DNA of 64,000 nucleotides from a virus, in the IMG/VR virus record IMGVR_UViG_3300015371_000021, positions 1 through 64,000 of that record, one strand, 5' to 3'. Positions 22,552 to 50,857 of this stretch are shown here, piece by piece. The notes under the pieces are model-generated. The model saw only the letters and a list, made by a program, of their open reading frames with translations, was not told where the DNA came from and searched no databases. Numbering within the stretch: the first letter of the stretch is position 1; every line of letters starts with the position of its first letter. The position numbers and the translations under genes are program-made.

Positions 22552-22794
22552 CTATTTTATGGGGGGAGGCGGCGCGGCGTTTTTGGCTTGCAGCTCAGCA
22601 AGCTGGCGCTGATCAGACGCAACCTGTGCACGCAGGCGGCTGATCAGGCTGAGTAGCTCGGCGCCGGTGTTGTTGCAGGCGGTGATTTCGTCCTGCGGAG
22701 TCGCGCCGCCACTTTGTGCTGGCTGGGCCTGGACAGCGAAGGGGAGTAGTGCTGTCAAGGCAACGATTACTGTCAGCGAAGCGAGTTTTGCCAC
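22552..22794 (-). CDS. small secreted protein
   Basis: GTG start MAKLASLTVIVALTALLPFAVQA signal peptide. Confidence 0.55.
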   Translation of the reverse strand: MAKLASLTVIVALTALLPFAVQAQPAQSGGATPQDEITACNNTGAELLSLISRLRAQVASDQRQLAELQAKNAAPPPPIK

Positions 22795-24707
22795 GGAATA
22801 CCTCTGGTTGTGTTCAGTCCGAAAATGAGCATAGGACGGCCTGGCGTTGCAACCCTTGGTGTAAACAGCAGCTGCTGCCACCAGGACCATTGGCCGGATT
22901 TGACGCTGTTGTCGGCGTTCAGCGTGCCGTTCGGGTTGGAGCCCGGGCGGTTGCCCCAGACGAACCAGTTGGTCGACATCGGCTGATTACGGCCGGGGAA
23001 GGCTGGCCCACCCGAGGCGACGCCGTTGGCGTAGGAGACGAAGGTGGCCATAAAGTTCGAGTCGTTCGGCAGGTTGCCGTTCGAGCCATCGCAGGAGCAG
23101 CCAACCTCAGAGATGAACACCGGCGCGGTGCCGGCGATCTCCAGATAACCGAAGAAGGTGTTCCAGGCGGAGATGGCTGACGCGCCGTTGTCTGGGGTGA
23201 CGCCCCACACGTTGCTGGGATAGAGGTCGACCGAATAGGCCACCTTGTTTGCTGGCGGTCCGTTGGTGACCCCGCCAACCGGAGACTGCGCGACCCCGGT
23301 GAGGTCCATCAGCCCCGCGCCACTATTCAGCGGCTGGCCGTTGAGCAGGGTGGAGGTGCGGTTAACCGGCCCCGGCACGATCATGATGATGTTCGGGTTG
23401 ACCGCGAAAACCAGGTTGCCGAGTTCCTGTGCAATACACATCCAGTCGGTATCGCCTGAGCCACAGTTCCAGCAAATGCCGGGATTGACCCCGCCGCCTG
23501 GCTTGGCTTGGCCGGTAAATGAGCCGGTCACCAGCGGCCGGTGGTGGATTTGGTAGGCAATCACAGTTGGTTCGATAGTGTACCGCTGCATTAGGGCGAC
23601 GGTGTTGTTTTCCCACTGTACCAGCGTAACGTTGGACCCATTGCCGCAGCCGTCGTCGTTGCCGCTGGAGCCGCCGCTGTCATAGGGCAGGCCGTTAGCT
23701 TGCACCGACCAACACGGGCTGGCGGGCGAAGCAGGCAGCTCATTACCCTGATGTGAGAGGATGACCTTGAGGCCTGCGGCCTTGGCGTTCGCGACGCAGG
23801 CGTCGATCTGAGCGAAGGTATTGCAGCCGGTTGCCGGTAGCGTGCCGCCCGAGGATGGTCCGTTGGCCGGCGGCGCGGCGACAGGACCACTGTAGGTCTG
23901 GGTATTGGGGTCGAAAATGTGCCAGGTGCTGTCGCGAGCGTCGGAGATGTAAACTGTGGTCTGGTTGTAGTAGGCCATTTGGAGAGCGTTGTGACCGATG
24001 TCGCTGAAGTTGCCGAGGCTGACTTCCGCGCCACCAGCCGGGGTCCAAAACGCGTTCAGCTCGGTATCCAGTCGGTAACTGTCCCCGGTGACCGTGGTGA
24101 AGCTCTGACCACCGTTGATAAAGATTGTCGCGATGCCAGGAGTCGAGCCGCCGCTTGGCGGACCAGTGGCAGGTGGGGCGGCGACAGGACCGCCGACGCT
24201 AGGGCCGACTGGGTTGAAGATATGCCACGTGCTGTCGCGGATATCTTGGATGTAGACGGTCGTGTTGTTGTAGTACGCCATCGCGAAGGAGTTGAAACCG
24301 ATATCGCTGATTGAGCCGATCGATTGCTCGCTGCCGCCAGAGGGCGTCCAGAACGCGTTGCCTTCGGTGTCCAGGCGATAGGAATTGCCCTGCACGTCGT
24401 TGAATGACTGGCCGGGGCCGATAAAGGTGGTGGGGATGCCAGGGCCGCCGGTGCCGGCGTTGAGCGCCATGTCGCGCCAAGGAATGACGACGCAGTTGAA
24501 CTGCCCGGTGCTGCGGATTGCCGCCATAGTGCCGTCGTTCGGCGAGCCCAAGAACTGGGTGCATGCCAGCCGCTGCTGATTGCCGGCGCTATCGATAAAC
24601 TGGTTGCCGTTGGTCGACAGGAACCCGCTGGCGAGCGGCGAGCCGGTGATCTGCGCCCACGCGGGCTGCGCCACCAGCAGCAGTAGGAAGGCGAGGAACC
24701 GGATCAT
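22773..24707 (-). CDS. secreted GH5-family (cellulase-like) protein with degenerate active site and two inserted repeats
   Basis: Sec signal MIRFLAFLLLLVAQPAWA; GFLSTNGNQFID, AKAAGLKVIL, NKVAYSV.LYP, APVFISEVG and WFVW motifs of GH5. Confidence 0.8.
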   Translation of the reverse strand: MIRFLAFLLLLVAQPAWAQITGSPLASGFLSTNGNQFIDSAGNQQRLACTQFLGSPNDGTMAAIRSTGQFNCVVIPWRDMALNAGTGGPGIPTTFIGPGQSFNDVQGNSYRLDTEGNAFWTPSGGSEQSIGSISDIGFNSFAMAYYNNTTVYIQDIRDSTWHIFNPVGPSVGGPVAAPPATGPPSGGSTPGIATIFINGGQSFTTVTGDSYRLDTELNAFWTPAGGAEVSLGNFSDIGHNALQMAYYNQTTVYISDARDSTWHIFDPNTQTYSGPVAAPPANGPSSGGTLPATGCNTFAQIDACVANAKAAGLKVILSHQGNELPASPASPCWSVQANGLPYDSGGSSGNDDGCGNGSNVTLVQWENNTVALMQRYTIEPTVIAYQIHHRPLVTGSFTGQAKPGGGVNPGICWNCGSGDTDWMCIAQELGNLVFAVNPNIIMIVPGPVNRTSTLLNGQPLNSGAGLMDLTGVAQSPVGGVTNGPPANKVAYSVDLYPSNVWGVTPDNGASAISAWNTFFGYLEIAGTAPVFISEVGCSCDGSNGNLPNDSNFMATFVSYANGVASGGPAFPGRNQPMSTNWFVWGNRPGSNPNGTLNADNSVKSGQWSWWQQLLFTPRVATPGRPMLIFGLNTTRGIPWQNSLR

Positions 24708-26489
24708 TCACACCGGCCGCCGGTAGTTTACTTGAATCGCGGTCGATGCTGGGGTGCCGGTGACGCCAGAAATCACCATCGTCACGTGCTGGCCGCTGTT
24801 GACGGTATTGGCCGCGCTGCAAGTGGACGTCGTGCGGCTTGCGGCTGAGACGACGATGGCGTTGCAGCCGGTTACCGGCGTACCGTTGATCTGAATCGAC
24901 ACGGTAAAGGTGCCACCCGTTGTGTAATAGGTGATGGTGTCGATCGTGCCGGCGCCCCAGGGCCATGTGTCGATGACCGGGATCGTGTCATTGCTGACAG
25001 CAACCGTCGCGCCCCACCAGGCGGTGAGGGTGCTGGTCGTGTTGCCGATGGTCAGCACAGCAGCGCCTGACAAAGCGAGCGGCGCGGTCGCGGTCAGCGT
25101 GCCGCCCGAGGCGCCGGCCAGGCAGGTCGGGCAGGTAAAGTTGCCGGTGCCGTTATTGTAGACCAGCGGTGCGGTGGCGCTGAATCCGGTGAGTGACGCG
25201 TATGGCCCTTGGGTAAAGCCATTGAACCGGCCGAACAGCCCCTGCGTGGTGCACCAGATCATGCCGTTGGTGGGAGATGTCGGCGCGGTGCCTTGCGGGC
25301 AGATCAGGTTGGCGCCAACGCCAGTCGAGGCCGCTGTGGTTAATGTGCCGGAGAAGGTGGCAGCGGCGATCGTGGCGGTGCCGCTGATGACTGGATTGGT
25401 CAGTGTTGCTGTGGGAATGGTCAATGCTGTTGGCAGCGTGGTGGCGAACGCTGGCAGAGAGGCGCCATTGCTGACCAGCACGGCGTTGGGGAGTTGCCCC
25501 AGGCACGTTACCGACGTGCCGGACGCCGCGTAGTAAGCCAGCGCTGGCGCACTGCCGCAGTTGCCGACTGTGCCGCCGCCGCCTGACCCGCCGCCGGGAG
25601 GTGCGCCGCCGTCGATCGCCGTGCCGTTTGCCGAGGTGACGATGGCGTTGCCAGGAACGAAGGTACCGGTTGCGGTGAGCAGGCGCGGGCCGTTGCCTTG
25701 ACCGTTGACGGTGCCGCCGAGCGCCACAACTTGGCCGGCGACGTTGATCTGCAGGTTGGACGGATTGGACAACTGCACCCAGGTGCCGGCGTTGTTGCGA
25801 TAGCTGAAGCATCCAGTACCGGCGCCGGCACCTTCCGAGCCGTTGCGGCAATCGCTGGTCCAGACCCACAGGCTGGCGGCGCCCGAGCCGGGCAGCGCAC
25901 CGATCGTGGTGGACAAGAATGACACCGGCCCGCCGAACGACGTGGTGGCGCCGTTATTGGCGATCTGGAAGGTCGGGCCTGTGCTGGTGATCGAGGGCGC
26001 GGTGATTGCGCCGGTGACGCCAAGGGTTGAGCTTAGCGTGGTGGCGCCCGAGACGCCGAGCGTGCCGGTGATCGTGGTGTTGCCGGACGCTAGAGTCCCG
26101 ACCAGCGTGGTGTTGCCGGTGACGCGGAGCGAGGACAGCGTGGTGAGGCCGGCGGGGATGTTCACCGGCGAGCTGAATGTGGTGACACCGGTGACGGAGA
26201 GGCTGCCGCCGATGATGGTATTGCCGGAGGCCGTGATGGTTGAGGCGACGACTGGGAAGCCCGAGCCGACCAGCGTGCCGAGGGTGAACTTGACCGACTG
26301 GTTCGATCGCGTCGGGCCGACCGCCTGCTGGCCGAGCACAATGTCGTTGATCTGCGGATTGACCCCTTCCGCCTGGCAGGCGGTGGAATTCGGCACCGTG
26401 GTGAGGCAGGCGGGCTGCGAGCGGGCGCTGGCGATCGACGCCAGGATCAGGGCTAGGGTGATGAAGAGGGCAGAGAGGTAGCGTCGCAT
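24708..26489 (-). CDS. signal-peptide-bearing fibre/adhesin-like protein
   Basis: MRRYLSALFITLALILASIASA; G/T/S-rich beta repeats, 12 Cys. Confidence 0.75.
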   Translation of the reverse strand: MRRYLSALFITLALILASIASARSQPACLTTVPNSTACQAEGVNPQINDIVLGQQAVGPTRSNQSVKFTLGTLVGSGFPVVASTITASGNTIIGGSLSVTGVTTFSSPVNIPAGLTTLSSLRVTGNTTLVGTLASGNTTITGTLGVSGATTLSSTLGVTGAITAPSITSTGPTFQIANNGATTSFGGPVSFLSTTIGALPGSGAASLWVWTSDCRNGSEGAGAGTGCFSYRNNAGTWVQLSNPSNLQINVAGQVVALGGTVNGQGNGPRLLTATGTFVPGNAIVTSANGTAIDGGAPPGGGSGGGGTVGNCGSAPALAYYAASGTSVTCLGQLPNAVLVSNGASLPAFATTLPTALTIPTATLTNPVISGTATIAAATFSGTLTTAASTGVGANLICPQGTAPTSPTNGMIWCTTQGLFGRFNGFTQGPYASLTGFSATAPLVYNNGTGNFTCPTCLAGASGGTLTATAPLALSGAAVLTIGNTTSTLTAWWGATVAVSNDTIPVIDTWPWGAGTIDTITYYTTGGTFTVSIQINGTPVTGCNAIVVSAASRTTSTCSAANTVNSGQHVTMVISGVTGTPASTAIQVNYRRPV

Positions 26490-26652
26490 ATCGCGCAGTC
26501 CATCCAGGATGTGCGCTTACGGGACGCCCGAAGCCAGCCACCCTACCGCGCGCGGGTGTCACGGTTCAAGTTGCAGCGTCGTTAGGTTTGGGAGTATGCT
26601 GTGCGCCTGGACCTACCCCTTGCGCCGGCCGCGGTAATGGTCGGCGCTTCTT

Positions 26653-29600
26653 TTATGGCGCATGCTCCTGGGCGCGACGGAAACGCTCCTTTACTTCTGG
26701 CGTGCCGGTCTGTTCGATCATCCGCCTAGTCCGCCCTGATATCGTCGGGTTTTGTGTTTGGCGGATGAAGCGCCCGATCTCTCGCGGCTCCATGCCGAGA
26801 CGGCGCAGCTCCACCCAGGCGCCCTCGGTGTCGCCGTTGATGATTTGCTTTCTGATGTCGGGCATCGCCTTTTGCAGCGCGTATTCGTTGCGCTGTCTCT
26901 GGGCAAGGGCCTCGCCCGCGGCCCGCCCGCCCGGCACACCCTGGCTGACCGTGAAGGCCCCGGTCAGCGGGCCCAGCAGCTTCATCGCTGAGACGCCGGG
27001 ATCAGCCTGCGTCTTCTGCCCTAGCGCATACTGCTGGAATAGTTCCTTGCCGCCCTGGAGCATCATCGTCGGCCCCCAGTTGCTGGCCAGGTGCTGGACG
27101 ATGGCGCCAGCGGTATCGAGCCAATCGCCCATGGTTTCTGGGTGCGGCGGTAACTGTGCCCGGCCCAGCGTGTCATAGCCCATGCCTAGTTCAAGGAACG
27201 GACGCACAGGGACCGGCCCGGGCGAGAGCTTGTTCATTAGCATCGGGCCGAAGTGGATTGGCCAATTGATGAACTCCTTGCCGACCTTGCCGGGCGGCAA
27301 GCTCAGGTAAATGCCGCGCCCGTTGCTGTCGACGCCGGCATAGACATGGTCCTGCTTGCCGGGCTCGTTCCAATGCTGCGGCAGCACACCGAAGATGCTG
27401 AGCGGGTTATGCGTGACAGCGTCATGGAGTGAGAAGGCTGCCTGGTCATACCAGTCGTTGAAGACGTTTTGTGCCGTTTCTGGTAGGTTGCTTGCATACG
27501 ACTTCATCTTGGTGACGAGCGGGTCGTCAGACGAACCTCCCACCGGATTGTCGCGCAGCACCTGCAGCCCGGCCTGCACAAGCGCGTTGGCGATGTAGAA
27601 GAAGCCGATGTCCAGCGCGACGGCAGCTCGCGCCTCACGCTTCATATGCTGCTTTGCCGACTTGGCTACATCAGGCCCAGCCATCTCCTCGATCCGGGCG
27701 CGGATATGCGACGGCGCGCCGTTAAACATATCCTTCAGCACGCCAGCGTTGCCCAGCGTGAACGAGCGCGAGAACAGCAGCAGGTTCGCCGCCATGTTGG
27801 CGCCCTTGCTGAGGTGCTCAGGCGGTAGCGCGCCGGCGTAGCGATTGGCAAAGTGCGCCCCTATCGTCGCGGCGACATCGGGAGCGAAACCCTTTTTCTG
27901 AGCCTCTTTCGTCATATGGTTGTAGATGCCGACCTGGAGATCGAAAACCTTGTCCCACAGCAGCCGCTGGTGCACTTGTTCCCAGGCGTGCGGGATAGCC
28001 ATAACCGCACGGCGAAACGCACCCTCAGACACCGGCTCGCGCGCCTCATCAGCAATCGAGGCAAGATCGACCCAACCGCTACGGGCACGGCCAAGTGGGG
28101 CGAGCCCGTGTTGAATTGCCCGATCCATGTAATCGAGGTCCTGCCGTAGTACCCGGCCATCGCGCAGCGCTTGGAGCGTCAGCACGCGCATCGGCATGAC
28201 CGCCAAAGCGCGCCCCATCTCGACGCCTAGATGGATGTAGGGGGAGGCCATAATGACCGACATTAGGCCACTCTTGCCGCTCTGCAGCGTCCTGTACCAC
28301 TGCGGCGACTTCTCGGTGATGACCGCCTTTATGGGTCCTTCAAATCCAACTGGGATGCGGATATCGCGGTAGCCTGTGCCGGTCCATTCGCGAAATGCCG
28401 GATGGTTCGGCATGGTGGTGTAGTCGGCGGGGTTGAGCAGGCCGGGAATATCCCCCCGCACCACTGTCTGCACGCCGGTCTCTTTTCCGACCCTATCGAT
28501 CTTGTCGATCAGATCACGCGCAATGATTGCTCGCTGGATCGAGGATAGGACGTTCGGCAACGCGCGAATGTCACGCACCATCTGCGCCTCAGGCCCGAGC
28601 TTGGCCTGTGCTGCCGCCTCAGTTTCCTCCGGTGTCAGATGCTCACGTCGCATCGGCCCGGCGGTGCTGGACAGATTGCCGCGTTGGTCAATGGTGATCG
28701 ACGCGCCCGTCCCGCCCTGCGGCCGGGTGAAGCCTTGCTCTTCGGACCACATCAACATGCGGCGCGGCATGTAATAGGGCAGACCTTGCGCCTCGGGCGC
28801 CACCATCCCGCGCTCTTGCATCTGATGCCAAAGGTTTTGCGAGATGGCGTCCAGCGCATCGATCATCTGGCGTTGTGGCTCGCTAAGGCCGGTGAGCCCG
28901 GTGTGGCCAGCATCAAACTCGGCGCGCGCCGCATCGCGCATGTCCGGCGGCATCTGCCGCACCTGCTGCTCGAACACAGACTGAGCGTCCATGGCCCGCC
29001 CCATGGCATCACGCTCTTGGCGACCGAACTTGCTTTTGATGCCGCGGTCGATCTCATTGAAGTGGTAGTTGTTCTGCCGCATCAGATTGGCGACGTCGGC
29101 GAGCGATGCTTGAGCGAATGTGTCGCCCTTGCCCATTGGAAAGAGCATGTCGTCGCGGAACGATTTGGCGATTGCGGCCGAGTTGTCTCGGAGACCCCGC
29201 AGGGGCTTTGCCAGCGGGCCGAATGCGCGCTTCCACGCCTCGGGATCGAACAGCGCGCCGGGGAATGAGTAGAGCTGCGCGCCGGGTGACTGGTCCCTGC
29301 GAGCCTCTACCTCCGCCATAAACTGGTCGCGCGTCTTACCCTCAGTCTCGATGCCGTGTTGCGACGCGAGGCGGTCAATTTCGGAATTGGCGAATTTGGC
29401 GCGCTCATAATTGGCGACCGACGCGTCGTCGAGCATCGAGTAGCGCGGCCGATACTTCAGGTCATCGTTCAGCGCGTCGCGAAGATCATTGATCGATGGG
29501 CGCTGATCGCCGAGATCGGGGAAGTAGCCAGCCTCCCAGGCGCGCAGCGCGGCTTCATCCATCGGCAAGCCGGTTTTGCTGATCAGGCCCGGCCGATATT

Positions 29601-31188
29601 TGGCGCCCCCGAGGGTGGAACGGACATCGCCCCCCTCATCGCTTATGCCGCCTTGGCGACGCAGGAATTGCGAAAGCCGTTCCGGCTCCTTGGGAGTTGG
29701 CTCGTAGGGTGTTATCTGCTCTAACGCTGGATTTTCGGCAGATTTGGCAAAATTTTCGGGAGCTTCTGTGGGCGGCGGTTCGCCGAAAGGCGGTTCCTCG
29801 GGGAGCTGGGTTTCGGCTTTCGGTGGGGCGGCTTGCGGCGGGGGCTCCGGCTCCGTCCCAGCCTTACGTTGCAGCGCATCAATCGCGCCTTCTGCCGGCT
29901 CACCAGCGGCGGCCTTCTGCAGATCGGCGACGCCTTCGGCTTCCGGCGCTGCCTCGCGTGCTGCGTTCCGCTCGCGCGCCTGTGCCGCCATCCGATCGAG
30001 CGCGGGGATGCCTGTAGATTGAGCCGCGGGGGGACTTGGCTCTGCAGCAGCCGCGTCCCCCTTTGGAGCGGTGACGTGGACGGTAGGCAGCCCTTGCTCG
30101 ACCTCGGGAACTGCCGCCGTTGGTTCGGCCCGCACCGCAGGACCACGCGCTCCGTGCAGTTCCGGCGCGCCGGTCTGCAGCCAGTCCATCACCTCGCCAA
30201 CGGCTTTCCCCGCGTCTTTGCCGCCAAAGTATTTGGCCGCCTGCGTGGCTGCTTCTGAGCCGGCAGCGATGACGGTATTGATCGCGCCTAGCGGCACGAT
30301 GGGCTGGGTCAGTCCGGCCATGCCATGCTGCGATAGCCACTGGCCAGGTCCCGACTGAGGATTAATCAGCGGTGGCGCCGACGTGTAGCCCTTGGCTGCC
30401 GCCTCATTGACTGCTTCCCCTGCCTCAGCGAGCGCTGCGTGCCGCTGCTGCAATTCCTTTCCGTAGTTGGCCCATGGCATGGATGATGGCGCGGGTGCCG
30501 TGGCGGCATCGTTCGCCAGCTCGCCCTCGGATGGCCCGACGCCGGGCGGTGACTGCGGATGTTCTGCTGAAGTCGGCTGGTCTAGTTCCGCAGGTGGGAG
30601 CCGCCCGGGGCGCGGGTTAAGCCCGAGGTGCTTATAGACCGCGTCGTCGCCGTAGCCGGCCTGGCGTGCTGCCTCGAACTTCGGCCCCCAAGTCTTGGAC
30701 TGGCGTAGGTAGTCGCCGATCTGCTGGTCGTTGAAGCCAGACTTGCGCGCAGTTTCGATCTGCTCACGGATGTTGGGCTGCTGCGGGGCTTCGGCGACCT
30801 GCTCCGGCTCGCGTTCACGCGCTGCTACGCGCCGGGTGTAGTCGGCATGGACCTTCCGTGCGTAGCCCTCGACATCGTCCGTCGCTCTGCCGCCAGGTCC
30901 AGCGTAGTAGGCCATGACCGCAGCCGCTGGGTCCCCGCCAAGTTTATCAGCGTTTTGGCGCAGGTAGCGTGCGGTGCCGTGGATGGCATCCGGCGCCCAG
31001 GTCGGGTTGATACCAAGCTCGCGTGCGGTGCCCGGCATGAACTGGCCGCGCCCTAAGGCTCCGGTTGACGATATCGCGTTGTCGTTGTCACCACCGCTTT
31101 CGACATGGTGCACAGCGCGGATCAGATCGGGGTCGATGCCGTTGGCCCGGCCCGCGTCTTCATAGACGCTGTCGTAAGTCTCGCTCAC
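26653..31188 (-). CDS. large internal virion (ejection) protein with N-terminal lytic transglycosylase
   Basis: IDPDLIRAVHHVESGG..AISSTGALGRGQFMPGTA..AVMAYYAG SLT motifs; 1511 aa. Confidence 0.85.
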   Translation of the reverse strand: MSETYDSVYEDAGRANGIDPDLIRAVHHVESGGDNDNAISSTGALGRGQFMPGTARELGINPTWAPDAIHGTARYLRQNADKLGGDPAAAVMAYYAGPGGRATDDVEGYARKVHADYTRRVAAREREPEQVAEAPQQPNIREQIETARKSGFNDQQIGDYLRQSKTWGPKFEAARQAGYGDDAVYKHLGLNPRPGRLPPAELDQPTSAEHPQSPPGVGPSEGELANDAATAPAPSSMPWANYGKELQQRHAALAEAGEAVNEAAAKGYTSAPPLINPQSGPGQWLSQHGMAGLTQPIVPLGAINTVIAAGSEAATQAAKYFGGKDAGKAVGEVMDWLQTGAPELHGARGPAVRAEPTAAVPEVEQGLPTVHVTAPKGDAAAAEPSPPAAQSTGIPALDRMAAQARERNAAREAAPEAEGVADLQKAAAGEPAEGAIDALQRKAGTEPEPPPQAAPPKAETQLPEEPPFGEPPPTEAPENFAKSAENPALEQITPYEPTPKEPERLSQFLRRQGGISDEGGDVRSTLGGAKYRPGLISKTGLPMDEAALRAWEAGYFPDLGDQRPSINDLRDALNDDLKYRPRYSMLDDASVANYERAKFANSEIDRLASQHGIETEGKTRDQFMAEVEARRDQSPGAQLYSFPGALFDPEAWKRAFGPLAKPLRGLRDNSAAIAKSFRDDMLFPMGKGDTFAQASLADVANLMRQNNYHFNEIDRGIKSKFGRQERDAMGRAMDAQSVFEQQVRQMPPDMRDAARAEFDAGHTGLTGLSEPQRQMIDALDAISQNLWHQMQERGMVAPEAQGLPYYMPRRMLMWSEEQGFTRPQGGTGASITIDQRGNLSSTAGPMRREHLTPEETEAAAQAKLGPEAQMVRDIRALPNVLSSIQRAIIARDLIDKIDRVGKETGVQTVVRGDIPGLLNPADYTTMPNHPAFREWTGTGYRDIRIPVGFEGPIKAVITEKSPQWYRTLQSGKSGLMSVIMASPYIHLGVEMGRALAVMPMRVLTLQALRDGRVLRQDLDYMDRAIQHGLAPLGRARSGWVDLASIADEAREPVSEGAFRRAVMAIPHAWEQVHQRLLWDKVFDLQVGIYNHMTKEAQKKGFAPDVAATIGAHFANRYAGALPPEHLSKGANMAANLLLFSRSFTLGNAGVLKDMFNGAPSHIRARIEEMAGPDVAKSAKQHMKREARAAVALDIGFFYIANALVQAGLQVLRDNPVGGSSDDPLVTKMKSYASNLPETAQNVFNDWYDQAAFSLHDAVTHNPLSIFGVLPQHWNEPGKQDHVYAGVDSNGRGIYLSLPPGKVGKEFINWPIHFGPMLMNKLSPGPVPVRPFLELGMGYDTLGRAQLPPHPETMGDWLDTAGAIVQHLASNWGPTMMLQGGKELFQQYALGQKTQADPGVSAMKLLGPLTGAFTVSQGVPGGRAAGEALAQRQRNEYALQKAMPDIRKQIINGDTEGAWVELRRLGMEPREIGRFIRQTQNPTISGRTRRMIEQTGTPEVKERFRRAQEHAP

Positions 31189-39732: not shown

Positions 39733-40569
39733 CTAGTAAGGGATTATTTCCAGGCGACGTGCCGGCGGCGTTTCCAGGAAGGCCGGTGGAGAGTTTATCA
39801 CCATAGCCGCTATATCGATACGTCCAGGGTTATAAAGCGGCGCCAACGGGTCTCCATAAAGCCGCCGGATTTCGGTGAGTTTTAGCGCACGGTTCCAAAT
39901 TGCGACGTTCGCTATGCCGCCCGCGTGCCAGGCATTCGCCAGGCCGTTGTCTCCGAACCTCAGTGATTGCGTTGGCTGCGTGTTGTTGACCGTAGTGACG
40001 GCGGCGGCGGTGGCCCCTTGCTGGCCATTGACGTAAACCGTGACGTTAGCGCCGTCGAACAAGCCGACCACGTGGTTCCACGCATTCTCGATCATTAAGA
40101 CCGAGCTGTCGCTGGTGCTGAAATGTGCGCCGCCGCTGGCGGAGACCCCGAATTTCGGGGCGCCTGTGACATTGTCGCTGTAGGACAGCGCGAACTGATC
40201 AGACGTCGTGGCGGCGTCGTTTAGAGCGGTGACCGGGAAGCTCCAATGTGCTGGCGCGAAATTCGGCCGCAGCCACACCGATACCGTTATTGCGTTGAGC
40301 GGCAGTTTGACTGAGTAATTTGTGTTTATAGAATTGGTCGAACCATTAGACGGGAAGTTGAGAGTGCGGCCCCACTTGCTGCCACCGCGATTGACGGTGC
40401 CGGTCCAGGTTGCCGATGTCTTGCAGCGGCCACAGGTGTCAACAACTTTGGTGCCAACGTTCTCGTTCAAAGGAAAGAAGTGCAGCAGTCCTTTGGCTAG
40501 ACTGTCATTCCAGTCGATCGTGGCGGCGCCACTATCCTGATGGACTGCAAGTCGGTTTATGTGGTCCAT
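39733..40569 (-). CDS. LamG/concanavalin A-like lectin domain protein
   Basis: ITVSVWLRP...WNHVVGLFDG..VTVYVNG...GGIANVAIWNRAL..EIRRLY. Confidence 0.85.
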   Translation of the reverse strand: MDHINRLAVHQDSGAATIDWNDSLAKGLLHFFPLNENVGTKVVDTCGRCKTSATWTGTVNRGGSKWGRTLNFPSNGSTNSINTNYSVKLPLNAITVSVWLRPNFAPAHWSFPVTALNDAATTSDQFALSYSDNVTGAPKFGVSASGGAHFSTSDSSVLMIENAWNHVVGLFDGANVTVYVNGQQGATAAAVTTVNNTQPTQSLRFGDNGLANAWHAGGIANVAIWNRALKLTEIRRLYGDPLAPLYNPGRIDIAAMVINSPPAFLETPPARRLEIIPY

Positions 40570-41823: not shown

Positions 41824-41834
41824 AGGTCAGGTCC

Positions 41835-42883: not shown

Positions 42884-42885
42884 AC

Positions 42886-43380: not shown

Positions 43381-45437
43381 TAATAACCCCTGCCATCTGC
43401 CGCGACACGATAGCGAAACTTTCCCAGCCGGTTGAAGGAGCCGATGTCGTTGCCCTCCACCAAGATCGCCATCTGACGACCGCGCCCGGCGAACGGCGGG
43501 ATGTACGCCGCGTGCGGCGACCAGGCGAACGGCCCGACGACGCTGTAATCGTCCGACGGTAGGTTGCGAAACAGCAGCGAGATGCGAATTTGCGGCTCGC
43601 CCAAGGTGATGAAGTCCGGAATGAACTGATCGACGAACTCCATGTCCTCGCCCTCGCCGAGGAAGAAGTCCGCGGTCTGCCAGGACCAGGCTATGCCTGT
43701 GCCATTGTCATCGCGCCCAATCTCGTGCTGCAGCATCAGTCCCGACGGATCGGTGCCAAGCGGGATGCCTGGCGCGGAGCCAGCCTGCAGCGTATGGCCG
43801 ACCCAGGCGGTGCGCTGCAGCTGCGGCGAGATCGAGTAATCCCAGGCGTTTTCCACCACGTTGAACTTGACTGAGCCGCGGGTGACGCTGCCCGCAACGT
43901 AGAGGTCTGACGCAGGGTCGATCGGAAAGAACAGCTCGAATTCGTTGTAGGTCGCGTTGACGCCCATGTGAAACAGGCCGGGTTGGTTGAGGTCCCAGTT
44001 GTTGTAGAGGATGTCCCAGACCGAGCACGGCACCGGCTGCGGCGCGCCGCCAGCGATGCTCATCATGTAGAAGCCATGCGGCGATAGCCAGAACACGACC
44101 TGTCCGAGCACCGCAAAGCAGCGCATGCCGAGCAGCCCGCAACGCTGCGCGATCGGCTGAAATCCAAACACGAACGGCAGGCCCATATAGGTCATCGACC
44201 AGGCGCCAAGATCAGTCCAGAGGATGGCACCGAGGCCGGTGGGAAGGCCGCCAACCAGGCGGTTGCCTTGCGGGATGGTAAACGAGCCGGCCTGATTGAA
44301 CTCGGTCGGCACCCAGTCGGTGTAGTCGCCGTTGGTCGACCAGCGCACCAGCATCGGCTGCTGCTGGCCAAACACTTCGGCGCCCAGCGCCACCACCATC
44401 CGGGCCTGCGACATGACGAAGACCGCGGTATTCGCGGTCGGCGCGTCGGGAGAGACAATGGCGGCCGGCACGATGGCCGGTGGGGTCCACTGATAAATTC
44501 CACCGCCGCTCGGGCTGGCGATTAGCACCGCGCCCCAGTTGGTCAGCGACCACTGCCGCATCGGTTGGATCGCCTGCTCGGACGCGAGCGACCCACCATA
44601 GTCTCCGGCGCCGTAGTCGCCGCCGCCATAACCAGAGAGCGCGGTGTCCTGCGCAAAGCCGGTCTGCAGCAGGTAGCGAATTTGCGCCGCACCGCCGTTG
44701 AGCGGCACGGTGGCGCCGCCAGAGGCGGTGTCAGTAACGCTGATGGTAAAGTGCGAACTGTCCGGCACAGTCTCCACGGCATAGAGCCCTTCGACTGTCA
44801 CTCCGGAGAACGTGGTCGGGACCACCGCATTATAGGGCGAGCCGACGGCAAGACCGTGTTGCGGGAATTCCACCGTGATCACCGCGCTGCCGCCGGTCGA
44901 CGTGTAGGTCGGCACCACCCCGCCCGACGTGGTAAACGTCGCGGGTGTCGCTGCCTCGACGGTGTATTCCGTGCCGCCGCCGGCACCCGATACCTGGTAG
45001 ATACCAAACAGGATCAGCCCGTCGATCGAGACCGGTGTGGCGATGCTGATCCAGTCGCCAATCTGCGGCGCGTGGTCCGGGTCATCGATGGTGACCGCGG
45101 TGGACCCACCCTGCGTCGAGAAGGCCGGCAGCGGATTGGTGGTCGCCTGTAAGGGCGTAATGTCATCGATCACGCCGCCGGTGAACACTTCCAGCCGCTG
45201 CTCAGTACCGGCGACGATGTAGGAGTTGCCCTTGAGATCATCGAAGGCATGCAGCCCGCTACAGGTGCCGATCAGACGTTCGGCGGTCAGTTGCTGCCAC
45301 CCGCCACGCTTTTCCGGCAGACCCGAACGGAACCGGATTAGCCGAGATGTATTCAGCTTGGTCTGGTTAGTCGTCGGGGTGTTCTGGACGTCGACCCCTG
45401 GCTCCAGGGTGAGGTCACGGTAAGCCACGGGTGTCAC
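43380..45437 (-). CDS. tail tubular/nozzle (P22 gp10-like stabilisation) protein
   Basis: PGVD..TPT, IRFRSGLPEKRGGW, VRWS..DY..W.PT..NQAGS, GR..RYRVAADGR. Confidence 0.8.
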   Translation of the reverse strand: MTPVAYRDLTLEPGVDVQNTPTTNQTKLNTSRLIRFRSGLPEKRGGWQQLTAERLIGTCSGLHAFDDLKGNSYIVAGTEQRLEVFTGGVIDDITPLQATTNPLPAFSTQGGSTAVTIDDPDHAPQIGDWISIATPVSIDGLILFGIYQVSGAGGGTEYTVEAATPATFTTSGGVVPTYTSTGGSAVITVEFPQHGLAVGSPYNAVVPTTFSGVTVEGLYAVETVPDSSHFTISVTDTASGGATVPLNGGAAQIRYLLQTGFAQDTALSGYGGGDYGAGDYGGSLASEQAIQPMRQWSLTNWGAVLIASPSGGGIYQWTPPAIVPAAIVSPDAPTANTAVFVMSQARMVVALGAEVFGQQQPMLVRWSTNGDYTDWVPTEFNQAGSFTIPQGNRLVGGLPTGLGAILWTDLGAWSMTYMGLPFVFGFQPIAQRCGLLGMRCFAVLGQVVFWLSPHGFYMMSIAGGAPQPVPCSVWDILYNNWDLNQPGLFHMGVNATYNEFELFFPIDPASDLYVAGSVTRGSVKFNVVENAWDYSISPQLQRTAWVGHTLQAGSAPGIPLGTDPSGLMLQHEIGRDDNGTGIAWSWQTADFFLGEGEDMEFVDQFIPDFITLGEPQIRISLLFRNLPSDDYSVVGPFAWSPHAAYIPPFAGRGRQMAILVEGNDIGSFNRLGKFRYRVAADGRGY

Positions 45438-47202
45438 CTGCCGTCGCGGCCTTCAGTTCATCCAGCTCACGCATGACGTGTTGCAGTGCAGCAGTTAGGT
45501 AGGCGACGTCGTGCGCATAGTCGCGCGTCAGGCGATAGCCGCCCGCTACAGTGCCGTCGCTCTCGGCGTATTCGGGGCGCGCGTCCGGCACCGGCACCAG
45601 CGCGGCGCCGCGTCCGTTGATCCATTCCTCTTGGGCGATAAAGCCCGAGGAGTCCTTGCCGCCCTTCCAGGTAAAGGTGACCGGCCTGGCACGGTCGATC
45701 CACTCGCGCGCTCGCGCGGGGGAGATGGTTTCGATGGCTTCCTTGGCGCGGGCATCAGACGTGGTGAAGAAACCCTGGCCGACATAGGAGTTCGATGCGT
45801 TGCAACCGATCGCGACCGGACCCCATGCGCCTGGCGTGGTCGCAACGGATGGTTGGATGACGTAGCAGCCGTTGCCACTGATCGCGGCTGCGCCGCCGAG
45901 AGAGACCAGGCCACTAACATTGAGGGTAGTGCTGACCGATACACTCCCGGTCACGGCGAGGGTCGTCAGGAAGGCCCCGGACGCATTGAGTATGTGCGCG
46001 CCGCTGCCCGCATTGATCGTCGGCGCGGTGACAGTTGGAGCGGTGAGCAAATTCCCCGAGACCGTGCCGGACGCAGTGAGCGATGGGGCGGTGATTGCCG
46101 GGGCGGTGAGGTCCGTCGCGGTGAGCGTAATGCCGCCCGAGGTGTTGACGGTGAACCCGGCGCCCCCGCCGCCATGGTACTGTATATACTGACCGGAGGC
46201 GAAGTTGAGCTGCTGATTACCCGACGCGTTCGGCTCGGCGTAGAACTGCGCACCGGTGCCGAAATTCGTTCGACCGTTGACGGTCAGGTTGCCGGTAATG
46301 GTCTGGCTGCCGTTGACCGTGCCACCCGAATTGGTGGCGGCTGAGCCGGTGATGTTGATCGCGTAAGTGCCGCCGTCGTTCAACACCGGCTGCGCGCCGG
46401 AGACTGTCAGGCCGCCATTACACGCCGTCGTACCGCCCACGATAAGCGCGCCGCCGATCGATGTTCCGGCGTGGGTACCGTCGATCGACACCGCGCCGGT
46501 GCTCATGTTCCAAGAGAACGGCCGGAGACTGTCCCACGACCCGAACGGTTGGCCAGCCGCCGTCTGCATGAAGAACGTGGAGGAGCCGTCGTTATGGATG
46601 AACATGGCGCGCCCGCCACCGATGGCGCGGAATTGAGCGCCGCCTTGGTCGGTGCCCTGTGCGGTGATGCCACCTGACGCGGAGAACATGCCGCCACCCG
46701 AGGCGATAGCCCCGCCGGCGGAGATGTTCGCGGTGACGTTTGCGCTGCCGCCGACGGTCAGATCGCCGGTCGTGGTTTGTCCGCCGACGCCGACGTTCAG
46801 CGACGAGACATTGGTGAAGCCGTCGGTCCAGTAGAGATACCAGAGATTGTCGTTGGGCACGGTCAGCGTTGTCCCGCCGCCAGCAGTCAGGGTCAGTATC
46901 TGCCCACCGGTGGTCGCGTTCCGCACGTAGCCGATTTTCTGCACGTTCGGCATGTGAATATTGCAGGCGCTCGCCAACGTGCCGATGAAAGTCTTCATCC
47001 GATAGCGCCGCTCGTCGGGCACACCATTGCCAACGGTGAGCGTGTAATCGAGCCGGTTGGAGATATCGATTGTCACGAGCCCGTCGAGCGACTGGTCCTC
47101 CAAGGTCGCGTTGGTGCTGTTCGGCGCGCCCCAGGAATTGCGAATCGACGGATCGAACGGCTGCAGCACCGCAAAGCCGTTCGACTGGGTATACGTAGTC
47201 AT
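45415..47202 (-). CDS. tail fibre with C-terminal intramolecular chaperone (peptidase S74)
   Basis: TSDARAKEAI...GFIAQE...DY..VAYLTAALQ + coiled coil. Confidence 0.85.
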   Translation of the reverse strand: MTTYTQSNGFAVLQPFDPSIRNSWGAPNSTNATLEDQSLDGLVTIDISNRLDYTLTVGNGVPDERRYRMKTFIGTLASACNIHMPNVQKIGYVRNATTGGQILTLTAGGGTTLTVPNDNLWYLYWTDGFTNVSSLNVGVGGQTTTGDLTVGGSANVTANISAGGAIASGGGMFSASGGITAQGTDQGGAQFRAIGGGRAMFIHNDGSSTFFMQTAAGQPFGSWDSLRPFSWNMSTGAVSIDGTHAGTSIGGALIVGGTTACNGGLTVSGAQPVLNDGGTYAINITGSAATNSGGTVNGSQTITGNLTVNGRTNFGTGAQFYAEPNASGNQQLNFASGQYIQYHGGGGAGFTVNTSGGITLTATDLTAPAITAPSLTASGTVSGNLLTAPTVTAPTINAGSGAHILNASGAFLTTLAVTGSVSVSTTLNVSGLVSLGGAAAISGNGCYVIQPSVATTPGAWGPVAIGCNASNSYVGQGFFTTSDARAKEAIETISPARAREWIDRARPVTFTWKGGKDSSGFIAQEEWINGRGAALVPVPDARPEYAESDGTVAGGYRLTRDYAHDVAYLTAALQHVMRELDELKAATAGDTRGLP

Positions 47203-47912
47203 GCGGCTCTCCTATCCGCGTCGGACATGCCGCGGCGGCGCATCTCCTCACCCTTGGCCGCGGCTAGGTGTTTCGTGAAGAGCGCTTCCCAGCTGAGCGC
47301 CTGGCCGGTTTCGTCGGCCGCAGCGCCGTAGTTACGATTGAGCGCGCCCGCAAGAAATACGCAGATCGCCGCCTGCAGCAGCTCGGGATACTGACGCGAC
47401 AGATAGGTTGAGGGATTGGTTACGCTCATCGGTGAGGCGGCAAACAACCCACCGAGTCTGACCGTGTAAGCATTGTCCGGCGTTGGTGCGATCACCACGC
47501 TGGTCGCGTCACGCAGCGCCCAATAGCGCCCGCCCTGCCAGGTCAGCGATGGCATCATGGTGGTGAATTCGTTGGGCCAGACGCGATCGATGAAATCGAT
47601 GCTGACCCGATCGAAGGGAATCAGCCCGCCATTGACCACCAGGCGAAGCACTTCCGGCGTAACCAGCGGCAGCGGGGTCGCGGACAGATCGATGACACGC
47701 GATCCCGTGGTGGTCGACGCAGAACTGTCCTCGACATACGACGCGATGAAAGGAATTTCATGGTAGATGCGCGTCTCGGCGGTACTTACGGCAATCGGGA
47801 ACTGGGCGAGGAACAGCGTGTCGTAGACCGGTGTGGTTGGCACAGGCGACGGCAAACGCCCCATTGCAATGGCACAGGATTGCATCAGCGAGGACCAGGT
47901 TTGCTCAGCCAT
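47199..47912 (-). CDS. head-tail adaptor / tail tubular protein A
   Basis: AETRIY...IAPTPDNAYTV...TYLS..YPELL. Confidence 0.75.
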   Translation of the reverse strand: MAEQTWSSLMQSCAIAMGRLPSPVPTTPVYDTLFLAQFPIAVSTAETRIYHEIPFIASYVEDSSASTTTGSRVIDLSATPLPLVTPEVLRLVVNGGLIPFDRVSIDFIDRVWPNEFTTMMPSLTWQGGRYWALRDATSVVIAPTPDNAYTVRLGGLFAASPMSVTNPSTYLSRQYPELLQAAICVFLAGALNRNYGAAADETGQALSWEALFTKHLAAAKGEEMRRRGMSDADRRAA

Positions 47913-47924
47913 CGTGGATGTCCA

Positions 47925-48122
47925 TCAACGCGCCCGCCAGCCGATTGTCGTCGGACGCACCTGACTGCCGATGTTGAACCCCTGAGTGAATGCGTCGCGC
48001 TTAAACCCGCCAGCCGCACCTCCGCCGGCACCGATCGCGCCCTCTGACCGCCGCGCGCGCCAGGGCAGCAGAAACGCCAACAAAAGTGCGCCTAGCGAAC
48101 GGCGACTAAGTAACGCTCTCAT
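47925..48122 (-). CDS. small protein with twin-arginine-like signal
   Basis: ATGA-coupled; MRALLSRRSLGALLLAFLLPW. Confidence 0.55.
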   Translation of the reverse strand: MRALLSRRSLGALLLAFLLPWRARRSEGAIGAGGGAAGGFKRDAFTQGFNIGSQVRPTTIGWRAR

Positions 48123-50857
48123 CCGGTGCGTCCGTTGATAAAGGCGGTGATGGTGCCAGTCGTCTTGGTAAAGCAGGTCGTTGCACTGGAAACCACCGCA
48201 GTGATGCCGGTGGAGAACACCTGCGGTGGCCCCGGGGAATAGTCGATCTGTGCGTAGCTCGACGCCGGTAGCGGCACGCACGCGAGTGGCGTGACTGCGC
48301 CATCTGCTGGTGACGTGGTGGAATTCAGCACCAGCAGGAACCCAGCAGTCGATGTCAGGTTGGTCGCGTAGACGCTGTACAGATTGCCAGCGCTGGCCTT
48401 CAGCACGTGATTATTCTCAGCCGCACTGGAAACCACAGAAGTAATACCGGCGGCGGAGGCGGACGTCGGCGCGACGGTGGTCTGCACCGGCGTCATGCCG
48501 GACGAGCCCTGCACCGTCCACGGACCAGACGCCTGAGTGACGGCGCCGATCGTGTTCGAGCCCGGCGGCAACTGGGTATTCACGGTGACCAGCGTGTTGC
48601 CGCCGCTGTCACACTGCACCGGCGAAGAGCGGGTGGAGGTAATAGCGGTCGGCGCGGTGTTGAACTGACAGCCGGTGAGAATGGCGTTGGCCGGGGACAC
48701 CGCGTTCTGCCCGGCAAAGTCCAGCACCGCCCCACCATTGCCGAGCAGGTTCACCGTCGCCTTCAGATTAGCCGCAGTCGCCTGCGCCACGGTGGCATTC
48801 AGGTTGGCCGCGGTGGATTGGCTGACTACGAGCGCCGTGCCGTTGGCACCGGTGTTGGCGAGCGACACCTGCAGGGGAGTGGTGGACGTGCCGACCTCGG
48901 TGCCGGAGGCGTCACGCAGGTTGGAAAACAGCGCCCGCTGCGCCGTCACCTGAAACGCACCCTGCTGCCCGGTAGTGAGTGCGTTGGAGGTGGCGGTGGT
49001 CTGGAAAAAGCCGCCCACCAGGGTCTGCGGCGAGGTGCTGGCGGTGAAGGTACTCTTGTCCGCCGCTGTCGTGGTCGTGCAGCCGCTGTCGCAGACGATG
49101 TGCAGATTGGTGCCGGTGGCCTGGGACACCGTCGCATTCAAGTTCGACGCCGTCGACTGGCTTACCTGGATCGGCGTCATTGAGGCGATGCCCTGGACTG
49201 TCATCACGCCGGTGTCTGACGTCCCGGCAGTGCCTGCTCCCGTCGCCTGCGTCTTTAGGTTCGACGCGGTGGCCTGGCTGACATTGGCATTGAGGTTCGC
49301 CGCCGTGCTCTGCACCACAGTCGCGTTCAAGTTGGCCGCTGTGCTCTGCGCCGCCGTCACCAGCACCGCCGTGCCATTGGCTGCCGTGTTAGCCAGTGAG
49401 ACCTGTACCGGCGTGGTCGAAGTGCCGATTTCCGTGCCCGACGCGTTGCGCAGGTTGGTGAACAGCGCGCGATTCGCGGTGACCTGAAACGCGCCCATCT
49501 GGCCGGTGGTCAGCGCGTTGTTTGTCGCGGTGGTCTGAAACACGCCACCGATTGGCGTCTGCGAGGTGGTGCTGAATGTAAAGGTCGACGCGTCGGCCGG
49601 TGCGGTCGAGGACGAGCAACCGCTGTCGCAGGAAACATGCAGGCTGGCGCCAGACGACTGTGCCACGGTGACCGCCGTCCCCGAGGCGATGCCCTGGATG
49701 GTCTGCACGCCGGTGTCAGGCGTGCCTGCAGTACCCGCGCCGGTGACCTTAGCGTTCAGGTTCGCTGCGGTACTCTGCACCACGGTCGCGTTAAGATTCC
49801 CGGCCGTCGCCTGCGACACCTGCACCGGCGTCATTGACGCGATGCCTTGGACCGTCAGCACGCCCGCGTTGGCCGTGCCGGCGGTGCCGGCACCGATAAC
49901 GGTCGCGTTCAGATTGGCCGCCGCGGCCTGACTGACGGTGACCGGTGTGGCGTTGGAAGCAGTGTTGGCAAGCGAGACCTGCAGCGGCACAGCAGCGACC
50001 CCGGCCTCAGCCCCCGTTGCGTTGCGCAGGTTGACATGCAGTGCGCGGTTAATCGTCGCTTGCACCGCGCCCATCTGACCCGAGGTCAATGGATTGGACG
50101 TCGCCGTCGTCTGATATACCGCGCCGATCGGCGTCTGCGATGACGAGCCGAAGGTAAATGCCCCCTGATCGGCCGGCGCTCCGGTAGCCGAGCAGCCACT
50201 ATCGCAGACCATGTGCAAATTGGACCCGGTGCCTTGGACAGCGGTGACCGTGCCGGATACCGTCGCCAGCAAATTGCCGGCGCTGGCATTGTTGACGATC
50301 AGCGGGGTCATCCCCGAGATGCCTTGCACCGTCTGCACCCCGGTGTCAGCGGTGCCTGCGGTGCCGGCGCCAGTCGCCTGCGTCTTCAAATTCGCCGCGG
50401 TGGATTGGATTGCCGTCACAGACCCGCCGGCTTGCACCGAGACAGAGACCGGGGTCATGCCCGCGATACCCTGGACGGTCATCACGCCAGCATTCGCCGT
50501 ACCCGCTGCCCCAGCACCGACCACGGTCGCGTTCAGATTTGCCGCCGTCGCGTTGTTGACGATCACCGGCGTCATCGACGCGATGCCCTGAATCGTCAGC
50601 ACGCCAGCGTCAGCAGTTCCTGCGGTACCCTTACCGGTCGCGAGCACAGAGAGTCCAAGCGTCGCAGAAACCGGCGCGCAGGTGTTCGGATCAGTCGCGT
50701 CGCAGGTAATACCGCGGTTAGAGAACTGGCCGCCGATATTGGCCTTCACGTTCATCTGCTGATTGGCGCCGTCGGCGTCTTTGATCTTCAGTCCGTCGGC
50801 GTGCGCCGGGACCGATACCAAGAGCAGGAGAAGAGCAACGATCCATCGCGCCATCAC
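48119..50857 (-). CDS. signal-peptide-bearing repetitive adhesin/structural protein
   Basis: MMARWIVALLLLLVSVPAHA; repeats GAGTAGT.D.GV.TVQGI, QSTAANLNATV, CDSGC x3. Confidence 0.8.
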   Translation of the reverse strand: MMARWIVALLLLLVSVPAHADGLKIKDADGANQQMNVKANIGGQFSNRGITCDATDPNTCAPVSATLGLSVLATGKGTAGTADAGVLTIQGIASMTPVIVNNATAANLNATVVGAGAAGTANAGVMTVQGIAGMTPVSVSVQAGGSVTAIQSTAANLKTQATGAGTAGTADTGVQTVQGISGMTPLIVNNASAGNLLATVSGTVTAVQGTGSNLHMVCDSGCSATGAPADQGAFTFGSSSQTPIGAVYQTTATSNPLTSGQMGAVQATINRALHVNLRNATGAEAGVAAVPLQVSLANTASNATPVTVSQAAAANLNATVIGAGTAGTANAGVLTVQGIASMTPVQVSQATAGNLNATVVQSTAANLNAKVTGAGTAGTPDTGVQTIQGIASGTAVTVAQSSGASLHVSCDSGCSSSTAPADASTFTFSTTSQTPIGGVFQTTATNNALTTGQMGAFQVTANRALFTNLRNASGTEIGTSTTPVQVSLANTAANGTAVLVTAAQSTAANLNATVVQSTAANLNANVSQATASNLKTQATGAGTAGTSDTGVMTVQGIASMTPIQVSQSTASNLNATVSQATGTNLHIVCDSGCTTTTAADKSTFTASTSPQTLVGGFFQTTATSNALTTGQQGAFQVTAQRALFSNLRDASGTEVGTSTTPLQVSLANTGANGTALVVSQSTAANLNATVAQATAANLKATVNLLGNGGAVLDFAGQNAVSPANAILTGCQFNTAPTAITSTRSSPVQCDSGGNTLVTVNTQLPPGSNTIGAVTQASGPWTVQGSSGMTPVQTTVAPTSASAAGITSVVSSAAENNHVLKASAGNLYSVYATNLTSTAGFLLVLNSTTSPADGAVTPLACVPLPASSYAQIDYSPGPPQVFSTGITAVVSSATTCFTKTTGTITAFINGRTG

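Follow-up and report, generated by a model that had tools for sequence, protein, structure and literature searches.

The stretch of DNA analysed here (the window, 64,000 nucleotides) is the first part of the virus record IMGVR_UViG_3300015371_000021, a 72,189-bp single contig that holds a podovirus-type genome, and its late operon contains four genes whose products begin with Sec-type leaders. Three of these products are large, namely the fibre-type proteins P0001 (911 amino acids, aa) and P0002 (593 aa) and the GH5-derived protein P0003 (644 aa), and the fourth is an 80-aa protein. Judging from sequence comparisons, we consider it very probable that export proceeds through the host Sec system and that folding is oxidative and takes place in the periplasm. 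This reading, which a first-pass annotation of the window had put forward, is supported by leaders that are conserved in syntenic homologs, by cysteines (Cys) that are even in number and paired, by the joint loss of pair partners, and by the Cys-poor composition of leaderless relatives.

Four late genes encode proteins with Sec-type leaders

The four open reading frames (ORFs) with leaders that the first-pass annotation listed are all present on the minus strand where it had placed them (Table 1). The ORF at 48119-50857 (912 aa) reads V-MARWIVALLLLLVSVPAHA/DGL, with the slash at the expected cleavage site, and its translation probably begins at the ATG at 50854, giving 911 aa; this start is fixed because the ATG overlaps the upstream stop codon as TGATG. 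P0002 begins MRRYLSALFITLALILASIASARS/QPAC and contains 12 Cys, and P0003 begins MIRFLAFLLLLVAQPAWA/QIT and contains 11. The 80-aa protein reads (M)AKLASLTVIVALTALLPFAVQA/QPA from a GTG start that overlaps the end of the P0003 gene, and its counterpart in the close relative G001 starts with an ATG directly after the preceding stop codon.

Leaders were judged by an in-house heuristic for n-, h- and c-regions, not by SignalP. For a leader cleaved by signal peptidase I (SPase I), this heuristic looks for a basic n-region, an h-region of ~7-15 residues, and small residues at -3 and -1. The four leaders show a basic n-region, an h-region of 10-14 residues, and A-x-A-type sites with small residues at -3/-1. 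When the 84 ORFs of the genome were screened for an 11-residue Kyte-Doolittle mean of >=2.5 beginning within the first 8 residues, six qualified: the four leader genes and two others, whose products are membrane proteins of 68 and 59 aa. Within the four leaders, the means range from 2.75 to 3.37 and the segments begin within residue 7. The Tat signal motif is S/T-R-R-x-F-L-K. Tat export was considered and rejected: only P0002 has an RR (MRRYLS), and four close homologs read GR at that site, with P0132 keeping RR.

The Cys content of P0001 is as first described, with 12 Cys and three CDSGC motifs at residues 217-221, 409-413 and 588-592, and the single Cys reported for the major capsid protein (MCP) was likewise found in the product of 54362-55270. 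Other large structural proteins hold 0-4 Cys, the exception being a 612-aa ORF in the terminase position, which has 13.

Leaders and cysteine pairs are conserved together

A homolog search with P0001 yielded 560 homologs, and among the best 120 relatives a leader was found in 82 by a strict test and in 95 by a looser test. The Cys count is even in 78 of these 95 leader-bearing relatives. Several of the 25 relatives that fail the leader test are fragments or mis-started, and those that are clearly full-length and leaderless hold 0-4 Cys. A search of 1.84 billion cluster representatives returned 3410 relatives of P0001 at E <=0.001, with 1377 at E <=1e-10 and 171 at E <=1e-30. Leaders were present in 72 of 86 previously unseen representatives, and the leaderless ones were again Cys-poor. 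Full-length leaderless relatives with few Cys, taken over both sets, include P0050, P0068 and P0236 (none), P0070, P0111, P0237 and P0243 (one), and P0083 and P0175 (two). All nine full-length P0002 homologs have leaders (9/9), and among the non-self matches of P0003 a leader is present at the called start in 10/15, with two more lying behind starts that are probably mis-called. Across homologs, the leader sequence drifts and the A-x-A-type sites stay.

The Cys of P0001 and P0002 fall into consecutive close pairs, with gaps of 8, 4, 4, 4, 19 and 35 residues in the 912-aa reading of P0001 and of 10, 13, 18, 16, 3 and 15 residues in the 593-aa protein. Random placement brought the Cys as close together in 551/100,000 trials for the former and in 229/100,000 for the latter. 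Four full-length P0001 homologs retain the same pairs, except that one of them, P0009, has lost residues 729 and 748 jointly. P0002 carries six Cys pairs, and in an alignment with nine homologs the pairs 28/38, 311/329 and 397/413 are missing in 2, 3 and 3 sequences, respectively. Both partners are gone in each of these 8 instances of pair loss, a count from which P0134, a garbled fragment, was set aside. If proteins are exported into an oxidising compartment, leaders and paired Cys should occur together, as they do here, and we strongly infer that folding of the three large proteins takes place in the oxidising periplasm and yields five or six short-range disulfides.

An alternative is that the N-terminal segments remain uncleaved, in which case the proteins would be cytoplasmic or tethered to the inner membrane and their Cys would be structural or metal-binding. 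The 80-aa protein could indeed be a signal-anchor protein, and the putative terminase suggests that a cytoplasmic protein of this phage can have 13 Cys. However, uncleaved segments are at odds with A-x-A-type sites that persist as the surrounding leader changes, with an even, paired set of Cys whose partners disappear together, and with the scarcity of Cys in leaderless relatives, and we regard this alternative as very improbable.

P0001 and P0002 resemble fibres with C-terminal knobs

P0001 consists of a leader, a mature N-terminal module that it shares with other proteins, three repeats that each end in CDSGC, and a C-terminal knob; the full-length protein matched no Pfam or PHROG family. 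Structure comparison of the knob returned the Pgp3 C-domain, XepA, C1q, TNF ligands and BclA at Z 5.5-6.9, a range that indicates fold class, not kinship. Among the predicted viral structures in BFVD, the knob matched the Ralstonia phage RSK1 protein U6C862 (E 1.9e-9), and the BFVD matches are uncharacterised phage proteins. A prediction with three copies of the knob scored 0.26 against a mark of 0.42, which counts neither for nor against a trimer. The only shaft-related match for P0001 came from a tblastn search, which found one metagenomic record. A protein atlas search gave only viral clusters without names, and the cluster look-up supplied no names either.

In proteins of 364-744 aa, the mature N-terminal module of P0001 (residues 20-80) is found again immediately after the leader (z 12-21), and it also stands at residue 3 of the leaderless P0083 (z 5.3). 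Its presence on proteins of varied length matches the pattern of fibres with a common attachment module. No known virion-attachment N-terminal domain was matched in P0001 or P0002 by Pfam or PHROG.

The shaft of P0002 (residues 76-173) matches 'fiber/structural protein' genes in 7 cyanomyophage records, as well as fibres that bear Peptidase_S74 chaperone domains. The best clean match of its knob is the tail fibre of Agrobacterium phage 7-7-1 (9rkv_M; Z 10.3, root-mean-square deviation 2.6, 106 residues), in which the knob forms the fibre tip; the two share the jelly-roll, and their sequence identity is only 13%. Capsid decoration proteins, XepA, and C1q/TNF/BclA follow in the list. For both P0001 and P0002, most matches to C1q/TNF/BclA-type knobs lie in the range of a possible common arrangement only. 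Pfam detected no outer-membrane, S74 or other domain in either protein. From these features, P0001 and P0002 appear to be fibre-type proteins with a shaft and a C1q/TNF-like jelly-roll knob, for which a trimer is expected.

P0003 is probably GH5-derived

P0003 comprises a leader, the start of a barrel, an insert of two ~100-aa repeats, and the rest of the barrel. It scored 23.4 bits against Pfam Cellulase (PF00150), for which the cut-off is 23.5, and its homologs carry a precomputed PF00150 annotation. It also matches the GH5 endocellulase E1 of Acidothermus cellulolyticus (PDB 1ece, E 6.5e-11), with which its catalytic half aligns. The nucleophile Glu is retained, as FISEVG aligns with WLGEFG of E1. 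Unlike E1, P0003 has a 205-aa insert that splits the barrel and an Arg in place of the acid/base Glu (Arg390, codon CGG, 23538..23540, minus strand). The window copy reads HHRP at this site, versus HHEP in 6/6 close homologs and HNEP in P0167. Because of this replacement, we term P0003 GH5-derived rather than an active GH5, and the window copy may bind sugar without cutting it. P0003 is also without the C-terminal domain of its close homologs, and a search of the kind made with P0001 by tblastn found no record for it. On these alignments, P0003 is best described as a putative GH5-derived module for glycan binding or glycan cleavage.

The leader genes are kept in order in a close relative and are accessory in the late operon

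The first-pass annotation had proposed to check whether homologs in the same syntenic position keep the signal, and in G001, a complete genome of 67,331 bp with an MCP 89% identical to that of the window, leaders are present for all four genes. G001 has a P0001 homolog directly after the gene for a Cys4 protein (930 aa, 12 Cys, leader, 68% identity), and after its SLT ejection protein it has homologs of P0002 (600 aa, 12 Cys, leader) and P0003 (661 aa, 15 Cys, leader). Behind these come, in this order, genes for a leader protein of 86 aa, for a 63-aa homolog of the 72-aa protein encoded in the window, and for a lipobox protein of 143 aa. The first-pass annotation had placed P0001 between two adaptor/tail-tube genes. 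This holds downstream, where an SU10-type adaptor follows; upstream, the neighbour is instead the 209-aa Cys4 protein, and the 402-aa adaptor homolog lies one gene further.

In MW202675.1, which is more distantly related, the MCP shares 52% identity with that of the window. At the position of P0001 it encodes a leaderless 688-aa 'tail fiber' with 0 Cys together with a chaperone, and its homolog of the 209-aa Cys4 protein comes after the adaptor. Its homologous modules encode no leader protein, and we therefore regard the leader proteins as accessory and the fibre slots that they occupy as variable. Elsewhere among phage contigs, a family member lies directly after the portal gene and is followed by a leader-bearing ConA-like lectin, and in further contigs, those of Acidobacteriota metagenome-assembled genomes (MAGs) included, groups of two to four leader-protein genes precede the terminase gene. 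The 39-kb viral contig L021 encodes a leaderless family member of 2119 aa with 5 Cys (7760-14119); a PHROG 'tail fiber protein' match lies two genes downstream of it, and a terminase further on.

No promoter-like sites (0) were found around the leader genes, and terminator-like sites on the coding strand were not above those in shuffled sequence. A moron of the lambda Lom/Bor type was considered and rejected, as there is no separate promoter or terminator and the starts overlap or abut upstream stops. A 10-bp GC-rich hairpin (26622-26647) is located in the 163 bp that separate the SLT gene from P0002, directly past the SLT stop codon; it is not an obvious operon terminator because its T-run is on the plus strand only.

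Docking on virions and other fates of the exported proteins

The four late proteins very probably leave the cytoplasm late in infection through the host Sec system by means of type-I signal peptides, and the three large proteins very probably acquire disulfides in the periplasm; we propose that these three would serve as host-surface recognition gear for the outside world. When the holin opens the inner membrane, the cytoplasm and periplasm would merge inside the still-closed outer envelope, and the fibres could then dock on finished particles before the endolysin and spanin-type proteins burst the cell. Docking of the exported proteins on virions, and with it the full chain of events, is a reading that we hold tentatively and at somewhat less than an even chance. 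A wider reading, which we regard as doubtful, is that virion assembly in tailed phages from soil and water includes a second branch outside the cytoplasm, in which fibres, knobs and enzymes pass through Sec, are cross-linked by host Dsb and are added to particles between holin action and burst. If this reading is true, the 3410 cluster representatives of the P0001 family, most of which have leaders, would make it a common route and not an oddity.

Among the fates considered, docking is favoured by the following comparisons: the fibre architecture of P0001 and P0002, the location of P0001 in a variable fibre slot, the shared N-terminal module, and a precedent in Cellulophaga phage phi10:1 (NC_021802). 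In that phage, gp091-gp094 all carry Sec-type leaders (sequences checked), and the record annotates them as structural 'based on experimental MS/MS proteomics analysis' (MS/MS, tandem mass spectrometry). A feature in common with the window is the setting of the leader genes, which in phi10:1 encode fibre-type and pectate-lyase-type proteins, lie distally in the tail module and directly precede small lysis-like genes with transmembrane (TM) segments. Unlike the window phage, it is a cultured siphovirus of a Bacteroidota host, its leader proteins have 0-2 Cys, and its record is silent on leaders; the likeness is one of leaders and gene setting. The existence of leaderless relatives further indicates that the role of these proteins cannot require periplasmic residence before lysis.

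The exported proteins may instead never be part of the virion, being released at lysis as free soluble lectins or enzymes that could strip, mask or block the glycan receptor on the host surface. Such release would keep progeny off debris, loosen the exopolysaccharide or biofilm that surrounds the burst cell, or exclude superinfecting phage. We give this alternative a real but less than even likelihood, and several findings that weigh against docking speak for it. The homologous modules of MW202675.1 contain no leader proteins, which makes these proteins accessory, and the window phage has leaderless receptor-binding candidates of its own (the fibre at 45415-47202, the LamG protein at 39733-40569, and the tailspike-like protein at 2603-3730), so that the leader proteins are not needed as sole fibres. 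Many members of the P0001 family measure only 146-340 aa and comprise a leader and a knob without an obvious anchor, and the genome positions of family members vary. Free release would also suit the location of P0002 and P0003, whose genes fill the interval between the last ejection gene and the lysis cassette, and signal peptides are reported on 5% (3261/64,678) of the carbohydrate-active enzymes of soil prophages (CAZymes; PMC13507307). Docking is weakened further by the absence of the P0001 N-terminal module from 7/8 leaderless relatives tested, by the Arg at the acid/base position of P0003, by full-length AlphaFold2 (AF2) monomer models of the two fibres that have a mean predicted local distance difference test (pLDDT) of 56.9 and 45.7 and are usable in the knobs only, and by the consideration that the MS/MS detection in phi10:1 could reflect a co-purifying secreted protein. 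However, free release is itself opposed by the shared mature N-terminal module, whose occurrence on proteins that differ greatly in length suggests that they dock on the same partner, and by the position of P0001 in the fibre slot among adaptor-region genes, where it is translationally coupled to a structural-region gene. The leaderless, Cys-poor relatives likewise point to a role independent of the pre-lysis periplasm, and the leader proteins of phi10:1 are recorded in the virion proteome.

The first-pass annotation had also raised display on the infected cell, in which a host secretion system would carry the fibres to the outer surface of an infected or lysogenic cell, where they would act as adhesins. 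A parallel exists in the MAT proteins of Bdellovibrio bacteriovorus, which are reported to be signal-peptide-bearing, phage-tail-fibre-like trimers on the predator surface (PMC10769870). Like the window proteins, MAT proteins combine a signal peptide, a conserved N-terminal domain, a tail-fibre-like trimeric shaft and a variable C-terminal binding domain; unlike them, they are products of bacterial chromosomal genes and are used on the predator surface, and the likeness is one of domain layout. In that report, 13/21 MAT proteins have the S74 domain (PMC10769870), versus none in P0001 and P0002 by Pfam. One P0002 homolog bears the name 'fibronectin-binding autotransporter adhesin' from its jgi source, and family members occur in Acidobacteriota MAG chromosomes, probably within prophages. 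Surface display would nevertheless require a second secretion step, of which no sign was seen: neither P0001 nor P0002 gave a Pfam match to an autotransporter barrel, a sorting signal or any other domain, and both C-termini are jelly-roll knobs. Moreover, the genes are coupled to late structural genes with no promoter-like site around them, no integrase or prophage relatives were seen for the window phage, and a search of genome contigs with the MCP was empty. We judge surface display improbable; it and non-functional leaders are less likely than either docking or free release.

The 80-aa protein probably belongs with the lysis genes

In the 80-aa protein, a leader or signal-anchor is followed by a coiled-coil-like segment, and the end is Pro-rich; the protein matched no Pfam or PHROG family. 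Its gene opens a lysis-type cassette, which continues with the genes for an i-spanin-like protein and a holin-like protein (Table 1), and its positional counterpart in G001 (86 aa) also has a leader. This sequence and these neighbours fit a lysis cassette better than the virion-related part in which the protein had been cast, and it is better read as a putative periplasmic coiled-coil member of the cassette.

In G001, the cassette is closed by the 143-aa lipobox protein (LLAGC; L032 14880-15311). The window cassette has no lipobox gene and holds the 148-aa protein with a TM segment and a coiled coil instead. By this comparison, envelope-disruption genes appear to have been swapped between the window phage and its close relative. 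Elsewhere, the early region contains a 67-aa ORF (10530-10733, plus strand) with a strong lipoprotein signal, in which the lipobox LGGC follows a basic hydrophobic leader; away from the lysis cassette, this is a candidate exclusion lipoprotein or outer-membrane spanin.

Genome and neighbouring genes

The ends of the contig repeat 123 bp, which identifies it as a circularly assembled phage genome. Its G+C content is ~62%, and no tRNA genes were found in it. The late operon runs on the minus strand from beyond the end of the window down to ~21,900, and its gene order is a podovirus layout in the style of T7/P22/SU10. The 1511-aa ejection protein, which also matches PHROG 'lytic tail protein' (E 2.5e-19), is encoded by the final leaderless virion gene ahead of P0002.

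Table 1. Positions of the leader genes, their domains and neighbouring late genes, in operon order; numbering follows the virus record and agrees with that of the window
Feature	Position	Strand	Remarks
612-aa ORF	65955-67793	-	terminase suggested by position; 13 Cys
769-aa ORF	61985-64294	-	portal judging solely by position and size; weakly similar to a G001 ORF; 4 Cys
MCP-like gene	54362-55270	-	weak Mu gpT and PHROG major-head matches; 52% identity to annotated MCP; 1 Cys
402-aa homolog of annotated 'tail adaptor'	one gene upstream of 209-aa Cys4 gene	-	
209-aa Cys4 protein	50854..51483	-	translationally coupled to P0001 gene
P0001 gene (911-aa exported fibre-type protein; P0001/P0005)	48119..50854	-	translation; 12 Cys
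P0001 Sec-type leader, residues 1-19, MARWIVALLLLLVSVPAHA	50798..50854	-	Kyte-Doolittle mean 3.37; cleavage expected before DGL
P0001 C-terminal jelly-roll knob, residues 800-911, Cys pair 859/894	48122..48457	-	AF2 pLDDT 88-97
SU10-type adaptor	47199..47912	-	directly downstream of P0001; Pfam PF24175, E 4e-11
595-aa leaderless fibre, Gp34_trimer and Peptidase_S74 domains	45415-47202	-	4 Cys
685-aa nozzle or 'stabilization'-type protein	late operon, after 595-aa fibre	-	4 Cys
LamG protein and several small tail genes	LamG at 39733-40569	-	leaderless LamG
Acetyltransferase-like gene	late operon, between LamG/small tail genes and ejection-type giants	-	
1403-aa ejection-type giant	late operon, before 1511-aa giant	-	1 Cys
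1511-aa ejection-type protein, N-terminal SLT (lytic transglycosylase)	26653..31188	-	Pfam SLT E 2.9e-11; 0 Cys
P0002 gene (593-aa exported tail-fibre-like protein)	24708..26489	-	leader, Cys loop, fibre-repeat shaft, C-terminal knob
P0002 C-terminal jelly-roll knob, residues 478-593	24711..25058	-	AF2 pLDDT 68-86
P0003 gene (644-aa exported GH5-derived protein)	22773..24707	-	start codon abuts P0002 stop
80-aa protein gene	22552..22794	-	GTG start; 1 Cys; leader or signal-anchor
148-aa i-spanin-like protein, N-terminal TM and long heptad-like domain	22088..22534	-	weak PHROG match, family without assigned function
72-aa two-TM holin-like protein	21868..22086	-	closes operon; 48% identity to 63-aa ORF in G001 cassette

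The nearest named relatives in a search with the MCP were podophages of Pelagibacter, Roseobacter and Caulobacter, at 32-37% identity. A megablast of 20 kb against the cultured-phage collection gave no close relative, and searches of genome contigs with the MCP and with P0003 gave no relatives. Relatives of P0001 sit in Acidobacteriota, Terriglobia and Aestuariivirga MAG contigs, which indicates the hosts of those relatives and not that of the window phage.

The minus-strand head module is broken by a plus-strand island (56385-58521) that contains a 249-aa gene and an N6/N4 DNA methylase, and the 249-aa gene is retained in G001. A gene for a 59-aa two-TM protein (35984-36163, minus strand), with a weak match to a PHROG family without assigned function, sits within the virion operon, where its neighbours are the acetyltransferase-like gene and 36160-36852. 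Far from this operon, the minus-strand region 2001-3730 encodes the leaderless pectate-lyase/tailspike-like protein (375 aa, 2603-3730), and the adjoining gene encodes a 201-aa protein of PHROG 3108 with a Pro-rich tail, which has a relative in locus L007.

Relation to known systems and implications

In the textbook account, tailed phages assemble wholly in the reducing cytoplasm. Phage proteins known to be exported by Sec are endolysins (Sec or signal-arrest-release, SAR), spanins, exclusion lipoproteins and the coat proteins of filamentous phages. Endolysins and spanins are not virion parts. The g3p of filamentous phages is a virion protein that takes the Sec route and has periplasmic disulfides, and these phages assemble at the membrane. 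We know of no tailed-phage fibre that takes the Sec route. A full-text search of the accessible literature found no paper describing signal peptides on fibre-type proteins encoded in the virion operons of tailed phages, and one paper states that the targets of phage diversity-generating retroelements are without signal peptides (PMC6199706). Fibres with signal peptides would be categorically new if docking were proven.

The finding means that, across a very large uncultured family, export signals together with conserved disulfide pairs are present on parts that resemble host-recognition gear. Cellulophaga phage phi10:1 offers a cultured system in which either fate can now be put to the test. 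If the exported proteins do join the virion, assembly would have a periplasmic step gated by the timing of lysis, host Sec and Dsb would be phage dependency factors, and annotation rules that drop signal-peptide proteins from virions would be wrong for such phages. If they are released freely, lysis would liberate disulfide-hardened soluble lectins and enzymes, which would bear on receptor masking, biofilm and soil carbon turnover.

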